Shown here: positions 46,498-47,919 of the stretch, in pieces
How the letters are laid out: the number at the start of each line of letters is the position of its first letter
How positions within the stretch are numbered: position 1 is the stretch's first letter
Assembly: GCF_013315695.1 (NCBI RefSeq)
Contig: NZ_CP054353.1
DNA length: 64,000 nt
From: Escherichia coli
GTDB taxonomy: Bacteria; Pseudomonadota; Gammaproteobacteria; Enterobacterales; Enterobacteriaceae
Strand: one strand, 5' to 3'
Position numbers and translations under genes: made by a program
The notes under the pieces: model-generated
The model's input: the letters and a program-made list of their open reading frames with translations, nothing else
Database searches by the model: none
Told to the model about the DNA's origin: nothing

Positions 46498-47919
46498 TTA
46501 ATCTTGATGAACTATGTTTTTCATAAGGAGTATACACTCGTTGATGCTCTGAAGGTATTTTCTCATTTCTGAGGATGTTTTGTCGTAATCGAGCATAAAC
46601 TTATTAAGTTCTTTATACACATCATTATTTAGCTTTACATTGTCGCGAACTAAAGTTTGTATCAATGGTATCAAAATTTCGAAACGGGACGGTTTGTCAT
46701 CAATACTTGCCAGGGTTTTGAATACTCCGGTGTATCGGTAACCTAAGTGCTTATTGACAAGTTGAGTGGTCCATCGACCAGGCATAATATCTTCACAGCG
46801 CAAATTTTTTATCCTGGTATTAGTGAACGATGTTCCAAATATGTTGCTTTTTTTAATGAAGAGATTATTTATGTCTCCATTCGAAAAGATGGTGTTTGAT
46901 AAGTCGCTTTCAAAACATGATATATTGGATAATACACAACCAAAATAATACCCATATGAAAGATTGCTCTTTTCTATTGTTATATTTGATAGCAATAGTT
47001 TATTTATATTAATATTATGGGTAATCAAATACTGGATTTTTTGCTCGTTAAGTTCATACATCTCCAGTGATTTATTATAGGGTAATAAAAGTATAAATTC
47101 CTTTATATTATCTCCGCAGTAAGAAAAGACAACACCAAATTTATTGGTGACCATGTTTTCAGTTGAGCAGTAAGCTGACTTTTCTATTAACCGACTGGGC
47201 ACGCTTTTAAATAAAGATAATTTTTCACATAGTTGTGAATATGCCGCATTGCTAGTTTTAAAATTTTGCCATGTTTTTTCCTGGTTATCATCTGTCGATG
47301 AGACGGGGATTTTCAAGCATTGTTTATTGTATAGCTCAGGATAAATATTCTTTTTAATTAGATTTTTGATTTCCTTATTAAAATAACTTTTTTTCTTGTC
47401 TATTGCACTGTATTTAGCGTTTTGTGACGTCTCCTGATGATCATAAAATGACTGGAGGTTTCTGCAGGCCTCATAAAATATTTCAGGAGTATATAGCTGT
47501 GGGTATATTTCTTGGTTGAAGTTTTCCTTTAAAAACTTAACGAATTTTTCATAGCATTCTTGATATATCTTAATCTCTTCAGAAAGACATTCGCTTGTTA
47601 TGTCATCAAAAACATCCAATCTAAGTAATGTAATGCCTTTGTGTTTAAAAAAAGATAATTGAACTGTATGTTCTATGAGTTTACATCTATAAAAATGTGC
47701 ATCTCTTAGATGAGTGTATTGAAAAAAATGATGAAGGACTGGAGATGGTTTAGGCAAATCCTGGTTTCTAAAAAAGTCATCAAACAAAATTAAGAACTCG
47801 GTTTTATACTCGCAAAACACTTTTACTAACTCATTTTTTCTTGTTTTATTTATTATTACATCATCTGCTATATTTGATTTATAAAGACAATGTGGCGAAG
47901 TTGAGATACCATCTGTCAT
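46498..47919 (-). CDS. pentapeptide-repeat protein, EspX-like (type III secretion effector family)
   Basis: 473-aa ORF in low-GC DNA; residues about 300-375 form a perfect 5-residue periodicity (SNITI EKSNL SYGYY FGCVL SNISC FESDL SNTIF SNGDI NNLFI KKSNI FGTSF TNTRI KNLRC). Locus position next to rpsT corresponds to espX1 of EHEC as recalled. Confidence 0.65.
   Translation of the reverse strand: MTDGISTSPHCLYKSNIADDVIINKTRKNELVKVFCEYKTEFLILFDDFFRNQDLPKPSPVLHHFFQYTHLRDAHFYRCKLIEHTVQLSFFKHKGITLLRLDVFDDITSECLSEEIKIYQECYEKFVKFLKENFNQEIYPQLYTPEIFYEACRNLQSFYDHQETSQNAKYSAIDKKKSYFNKEIKNLIKKNIYPELYNKQCLKIPVSSTDDNQEKTWQNFKTSNAAYSQLCEKLSLFKSVPSRLIEKSAYCSTENMVTNKFGVVFSYCGDNIKEFILLLPYNKSLEMYELNEQKIQYLITHNININKLLLSNITIEKSNLSYGYYFGCVLSNISCFESDLSNTIFSNGDINNLFIKKSNIFGTSFTNTRIKNLRCEDIMPGRWTTQLVNKHLGYRYTGVFKTLASIDDKPSRFEILIPLIQTLVRDNVKLNNDVYKELNKFMLDYDKTSSEMRKYLQSINECILLMKNIVHQD

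Follow-up and report, generated by a model that had tools for sequence, protein, structure and literature searches.

Among bacterial pentapeptide-repeat proteins, MfpA and Qnr mimic DNA by means of an elongated, strongly acidic dimer. NleL (EspX7) of enterohaemorrhagic Escherichia coli (EHEC) and SopA of Salmonella are HECT-like E3 ubiquitin ligase effectors, and NleL is reported to be translocated (PMC3013003). Here we describe a further gene with such repeats, espX1, which lies in a stretch of 64,000 nucleotides of E. coli DNA (assembly GCF_013315695.1, contig NZ_CP054353.1; the whole stretch is called the window below). Closest to it in name are espX4 and espX5, encoding EspX4 (YjbI) and EspX5 (YjcF); like espX1 they are AT-rich chromosomal genes that are present in injectisome-free strains, and their products are called 'T3SS effector-like protein EspX', T3SS being the type III secretion system. 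From the state of the secretion loci in the matching genome, the distribution of the gene in the species and the selection acting on it, we consider it likely that espX1 is not kept for delivery by the injectisomes of the enterocyte effacement locus (LEE) or of type III secretion system 2 of E. coli (ETT2), and that its product is scaffold-like.

Results

The espX1 locus

The espX1 open reading frame (ORF) begins with ATG and runs through 473 codons to a single terminal stop. It is intact and has the extent given in the first-pass annotation of the window, with the same length as its orthologue ECs_0025 of O157 Sakai; over the 473 codons the two share 94.9% of their nucleotides and 91.6% of their amino acids, with no indels. 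Its GC content is 31.3%, compared with 50.0% for the window. Over 2.1 kb, the gene and its surroundings match the chromosome of E. coli MSB1_4I, which was isolated in Australia from a human rectal swab, with 100% identity, as do bases 1-25000 of the window (100.0%), so that the window derives from this strain or a clonal relative; the genome-level results on LEE and ETT2 were read from this window-matching genome. There the identical ORF bears the PGAP name espX1 and the product name 'type III secretion system effector EspX1'. MSB1_4I aside, the nearest alleles are those of IAI39 and CE10 (99.3%), and the Sakai allele is a different one. The ORF had been described as EspX-like; it is in fact espX1 itself, and the architecture that it has in common with other EspX proteins consists of pentapeptide repeats only. 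The ORF is thus an already catalogued gene, an ordinary finding in itself. We are highly confident of this identity, and equally so that the matching genome has no LEE and only a destroyed ETT2.

In the window the genes follow one another as nhaA, nhaR, a chaperone-usher fimbrial operon, espX1, rpsT, yaaY, ribF and ileS, and the order in Sakai is identical. In agreement with the location given for espX1 in the first-pass annotation, the gene adjoins rpsT, its next upstream gene; it has the same locus in Sakai. The rpsT-espX1-nhaR synteny is common to the window, MSB1_4I, Sakai and Escherichia albertii.

Injectisome genes in the matching genome

The MSB1_4I stretch that corresponds to the window (lplA, the thr operon, dnaKJ, nhaAR, espX1, ileS, carAB and the cai genes) has no annotated T3SS genes, which bears out the earlier statement that the window contains none. 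The presence of LEE in this one genome was tested with chimeric queries, in which espX1 was fused first to an 800-bp piece of escN and then to escN plus eivA. With each query MSB1_4I was the top record and had a single matching place, which indicates that neither escN nor eivA is found in it. At the ETT2 locus of this genome IS1 has shortened the ATPase gene to 228 bp, eivA (export gate, SctV), eivE (gatekeeper), eivG (secretin) and eivF (regulator) are missing, a frameshift interrupts the gene for SctQ, and that for EivJ is truncated. The remnant (MSB1_4I 1024238-1056466) is bounded by IS1 copies and rearranged: xdhABC lies inverted beside what is left of the ATPase gene, and a further IS1 copy truncates uacT. 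A functional injectisome was not found in the matching genome by searches for LEE and ETT2, other injectisome types not having been searched. The first-pass annotation had proposed, as one of two alternatives, an orphan effector that depends on a distant LEE or ETT2; in a genome without escN, whose ETT2 lacks the export gate, the secretin and most of the ATPase, this proposal fails. For the present genome, reliance on a distant LEE or ETT2 is excluded.

Distribution of espX1 in E. coli

The population sample comprised 5,426 complete E. coli genomes. Counts of espX1 were taken from the coding sequence (CDS) only, and the flanks were left out, since about 140 bp of the rpsT-espX1 spacer also occur in K-12-type genomes; in the K-12 strain XL1-Blue (NZ_CP132550.1), for example, only about 140 bp of the rpsT-proximal spacer are left. 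Side observations on the RefSeq records NZ_CM135829.1 and NZ_CP060121.1 were that a 4.83-Mb record labelled 'DH5alpha' carries a full espX1, its label being probably wrong, and that the gene is interrupted by IS1 in BL21.

The espX1 CDS was matched in 3,651 genomes, about two thirds of the sample, and in 3,597 of them (98.5%) at least 80% of it lay in one piece. The LEE segment escN-escV was found in 697 genomes and the ETT2 segment eivC-eivA in 1,310 (973 at 80% or more). An escN fragment or an eivA fragment was present in 1,336 genomes, and the three-way union of espX1 and either marker came to 3,710; it follows that 2,374 genomes, 65% of the carriers, have espX1 with neither a LEE nor an ETT2 marker. 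LEE/ETT2 dependence is not needed to account for the persistence of espX1 across the species.

These counts bear on the view that EspX1 is a true type III effector, which LEE would deliver in attaching-effacing strains or ETT2 would have delivered ancestrally, and that espX1 in the present genome is a stranded leftover, undecayed and probably silenced owing to its low GC content. We regard this view as rather unlikely. The 2,374 genomes that retain the gene without a marker, and the near-complete CDS in nearly all carriers, speak against it.

Selection on espX1

The eight alleles compared, drawn from diverse strains with O157:H7 and O111:H8 among them, all have 473 codons and no indel or stop, at a nucleotide divergence of up to 7.6%. 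Their pairwise ratios of nonsynonymous to synonymous substitution rates (dN/dS) are 0.25-0.49 at dS values of 0.05-0.17. The neighbouring genes ribF (dS 0.07) and ileS (dS 0.11) are similar in dS, and their dN/dS is 0-0.025. Against the E. albertii orthologue, dN is 0.176, dS 0.614 and dN/dS 0.29. Within E. coli dN/dS is 0.14-0.42 for aa 296-440 versus 0.32-0.50 for aa 1-295, so that conservation tends to be higher in the predicted beta-helix and C-terminal region; in the comparison with E. albertii there is no regional difference (0.28 vs. 0.30). These data demonstrate that espX1 is under purifying but relaxed selection, about ten times looser than that on core genes. This constraint shows in lineages most of which have no LEE or ETT2 marker. 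A single nucleotide separates the espX1 allele of a pig faecal isolate from that of an O111:H8 strain with LEE. In a stranded effector gene, dN/dS values of 0.3-0.45 with eight of eight alleles intact at dS 0.1-0.6 are not expected.

The looseness of this selection also raises the possibility that espX1 is a useless relic in slow decay, in which chance has left the ORF intact. A dN/dS at least 10-fold that of the flanking core genes would fit such a relic, as would outright loss from about one third of genomes, K-12 included, the interruption of the gene by IS1 in BL21, and a very common 470-aa variant with an altered C-terminal end (P0007). The proportions of differing sites argue otherwise, since dN stays clearly below dS at every depth (pN 0.157 vs. 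pS 0.419 for E. albertii), and so do the eight divergent alleles without indel or stop, the tendency of the beta-helix and C-terminal region to be better conserved within E. coli, and the finding that espX1 is transcribed (PMC5931665) and regulated in O157. Taken together, we judge chance survival of a relic to be improbable.

Effector status of EspX1

The first-pass annotation had described EspX proteins as type III effectors. For EspX1 this does not hold beyond the name: 'type III effector' is a designation by family resemblance, not a demonstrated function. EspX1 (ECs0025) is absent from the accessible part of the Ogura 2007 table of non-LEE effectors, which starts at ECs0061 and includes EspX2 and EspX7 (PMC2323221). 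In the curated Sakai annotation its product is a 'T3SS effector-like protein', whereas the LEE-encoded EspF and Map are each a 'T3SS secreted effector'. In a systematic effector screen in yeast EspX1 was not expressible and hence gave no result (PMC5599653, supplement). No report of its secretion or translocation was found in the sources consulted, which were indirect and did not include the paper that named the family. Both the 'effector-like' wording and this lack of reports count against a genuine effector. espX1 is listed as a 'type III effector' in surveys of virulence genes that cover isolates from shrimp, wastewater, poultry and clinical sources.

Several points weigh against a role that is independent of LEE and ETT2. 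espX1 is present in 1,277 of 1,336 marker-positive genomes (95.6%) versus 2,374 of 4,090 marker-negative ones (58%), an enrichment that fits a link with injectisomes and that uncorrected phylogroup history could also cause. In O157 on lettuce, ECs0025 transcripts were 5.6-fold up along with the LEE genes (PMC6891304). The N-terminal residues of EspX1 are well conserved and Ser/Thr-rich, with 32% S/T/P/N and 3 acidic residues in the first 25 aa; this is compatible with a secretion signal and not diagnostic of one. A dN at least 10-fold that of neighbouring core genes is typical of host-interaction genes as well as of decaying ones. A flagellar T3SS or a plasmid-borne injectisome may provide export routes beyond the LEE and ETT2 systems tested, and the indirect nature of the sources on secretion belongs on the same side.

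The second alternative of the first-pass annotation, a T3SS-independent role, is favoured by the population and selection data and fits them better than LEE/ETT2 dependence, but it is not proven. That a maintained function of EspX1 is independent of LEE and ETT2 seems to us marginally the better bet. More tentatively, and with somewhat less than even confidence, we propose that EspX1 is no type III effector at all, and would be an Escherichia-specific beta-helix protein that acts inside the bacterium or is exported by other means.

Repeats and predicted structure

EspX1 contains 15 consecutive in-register pentads (aa 303-377), the central residues of which are all hydrophobic (I, L, I, L, Y, L, C, L, F, I, I, I, F, I, C). 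Near-classic pentads include SNLSY, SDLSN, SNIFG and TSFTN, and a run of this length was reached in 1 of 20,000 shuffles of the EspX1 protein. At least 13 perfect repeats had been claimed; the 15 pentads fall within the approximate span given for them, and 'perfect' is true of the register only, in which there are no indels, as the repeats diverge from the consensus. In keeping with divergent repeats, the Pfam family Pentapeptide_4 matches aa 327-374 below threshold (E=0.022, 15.3 bits). Repeat proteins of known structure in the PDB match EspX1 at E values of about 0.002-0.004.

In the full-length AlphaFold model the predicted local distance difference test score (pLDDT) is below 50 across aa 1-287, and Foldseek with this model gave no match at E<=0.001. 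A model of aa 281-473 reached a pLDDT of 74.9 and a predicted template modelling score (pTM) of 0.69, with strands every 20 residues in about 4.5 coils, followed by five helices. On the strength of these models, assignment to the quadrilateral beta-helix fold class is well supported. The predicted helix occupies about 85 of 473 residues and has a net charge of about +1 (6 acidic, 7 basic).

The predicted fold itself cannot separate an effector-type from a Qnr-type helix. EspX1 might therefore be a cytoplasmic DNA mimic of the Qnr/MfpA kind that binds DNA gyrase or another DNA-binding enzyme and protects it, a possibility which we consider very remote. Matches to Qnr-type structures reflect the common fold, and NleL, SopA and SV2 match likewise. 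The NCBIfam Qnr models score 18 bits against cut-offs of 240-460, and a short, near-neutral helix that makes up less than one fifth of the protein argues against DNA mimicry.

Outside the repeats little could be assigned. The N-terminal 295 residues contain no hydrophobic segment resembling a Sec signal, and Pfam found nothing there but an insignificant Pentapeptide_4 stretch (aa 65-93, E=9.7). No catalytic domain was detected by Pfam, which gave the weak Pentapeptide_4 match only, and there was no match to the HECT-like domains PF13979 and PF13981; only about 90 residues follow the beta-helix. PHROG 923, a phage/prophage family of 990 positions, weakly matches aa 193-465 (window 46525-47343; E 0.0066, 15 bits), beyond the limits of the repeat region.

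Relatives of EspX1

A word-indexed search of 5.8 billion proteins returned only E. coli EspX1 alleles (87-92%), fragments, and one E. albertii protein (70%). When 1.84 billion cluster representatives were searched exhaustively with a profile, 41 matches came up, nearly all of them EspX1 fragments; in a few large repeat proteins the match was confined to the repeat region, and over aa 1-295 nothing but EspX1 fragments was found. The E. albertii orthologue sits between rpsT and nhaR with the fimbrial genes absent, which indicates that espX1 is older than the divergence of the two species and does not depend on the fimbrial operon. One apparent N-terminal homologue (P0050) was rejected, as it looks like espX1 translated from A-to-G converted DNA and thus an artefact. 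A protein filed under a eukaryote proteome (P0022) is an usher fused to an EspX1 fragment and looks like an artefact or contamination.

The similarity to EspX proteins that the first-pass annotation expected exists for the EspX1 orthologue, and does not extend to Sakai EspX4 (E 0.68) or, outside the repeats, to EspX5 (E 0.003, repeats only). One published table classes EspX genes simply as 'PPR' (PMC2749873). Both observations suggest that 'EspX' is a label for pentapeptide-repeat proteins and does not denote a family homologous over the full length.

A profile of EspX1 orthologues compared with all PDB sequences matched SopA at E 0.39-1.3 and gave no match to NleL up to E 10. The only lead towards a specific SopA/NleL homology was a distant match to a 1,938-aa Arsenophonus-type SopA-like protein (P0057, E 1.3e-5), whose alignment, judged by eye, ran into a motif after the repeats. 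With a hidden Markov model of this motif, made from 16 segments of 15 SopA-like proteins, EspX1 reached 2.7 bits, less than many shuffled controls did, so the match was repeat-driven and specific SopA/NleL homology was rejected. The want of a significant sequence link to SopA or NleL beyond generic repeats is a further point against a genuine effector.

Neighbouring genes and other features of the window

Coordinates are collected in Table 1. Consensus scans of the AT-rich spacer upstream of espX1 picked out a terminator-like hairpin and two weak sigma-70-like sites, from which espX1 is probably a transcription unit of its own; promoter-like sites in the spacer showed no enrichment over shuffles. 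No Rfam family was found in or around espX1, and PADLOC gave no match to it.

In most E. coli parts of the fimbrial operon are deleted, and E. albertii has none of it, with espX1 retained; most phylogroup A/B1-type genomes have lost the fimbrial subunit, the chaperone and part of the usher. Its distal adhesin-like gene is called a pseudogene in MSB1_4I and in O157 Sakai (ECs_0019) as well. Between mokC and nhaA (window ~35426-39074) lie genes for an OmpK/Tsx-like porin, a sulfatase and a 414-aa 'IS1/IS1595 N-terminal zinc-binding domain' protein, a trio that is not annotated there in O157 Sakai and that also flanks nhaA in E. albertii. Between satP and mog (window ~27744-29090), the annotation of the identical MSB1_4I sequence gives an IS4-family transposase gene with an internal stop.

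Table 1. Positions in the window of espX1, its parts and its neighbours.
Feature	Position	Strand	Basis or remark
espX1 CDS, intact	46498..47919	-	ORF reading; 100% identical to MSB1_4I JMX41_RS21820 / WP_021563218.1
N-terminal region, aa 1-295	47035..47919	-	Escherichia-restricted, no detectable homologue, no confident fold
15 pentads, aa 303-377	46789-47013	-	
C-terminal helical region, aa 385-470	46510..46767	-	five predicted helices, pLDDT ~70-80
AT-rich spacer, rpsT to espX1	47920..48402	-	consensus scans
Terminator-like hairpin directly after rpsT	48343-48372	-	consensus scan
Two weak sigma-70-like sites	48040-48012, 47984-47956	-	consensus scans
rpsT	48403..48666	-	
Chaperone-usher fimbrial operon	41495..46197	-	neighbour, outside espX1
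Fimbrial major subunit	45664-46197	-	annotation of identical sequence
Fimbrial chaperone	44931-45614	-	annotation of identical sequence
Fimbrial usher	42468-44918	-	annotation of identical sequence
Adhesin-like gene, frameshifted	41495-42455	-	ORFs 42129..42455 and 41495..42178

Discussion

In our reading, espX1 is an AT-rich, Escherichia-restricted gene that has stood beside rpsT since before E. coli and E. albertii separated. Its product is divided into three: some 295 orphan residues at the N-terminus, a short predicted beta-helix of 15 pentads, and a helical C-terminal part of about 90 aa. EspX1 is most likely a non-enzymatic beta-helix binding scaffold, and its partner may be bacterial, or a host molecule that is reached only in the injectisome-bearing minority of lineages.

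The 'effector' label has been copied into annotation pipelines and virulence screens and is unverified. LEE and the ETT2 export gate are both missing from about two thirds of the carriers, and with carriage this wide and no evidence of secretion found, counting espX1 as a virulence determinant inflates virulome scores. If EspX1 is indeed no effector, annotation and virulence screens miscount it in thousands of commensal and environmental isolates. Should the T3SS-independent role be true, the backbone 'EspX' proteins would need new names and renewed study.

How EspX1 stands to the described systems can be summarized as follows. O157 Sakai resembles the window in that espX1 lies between rpsT and the fimbrial operon with nhaR, and in having the same frameshifted adhesin gene (PMC4060028); unlike MSB1_4I, in which LEE is absent and ETT2 destroyed, O157 has LEE. 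EspX4 and EspX5, for all that they share with EspX1 in base composition, naming and occurrence, are encoded at other loci and have no meaningful sequence similarity to it. In comparison with the ubiquitin ligases NleL and SopA, EspX1 is too short and is without the HECT-like domain. Finally, in Qnr, MfpA and EfsQnr nearly the whole chain forms an acidic beta-helix dimer, whereas in EspX1 a near-neutral helix is set between a long N-terminal region and a helical C-terminal one.
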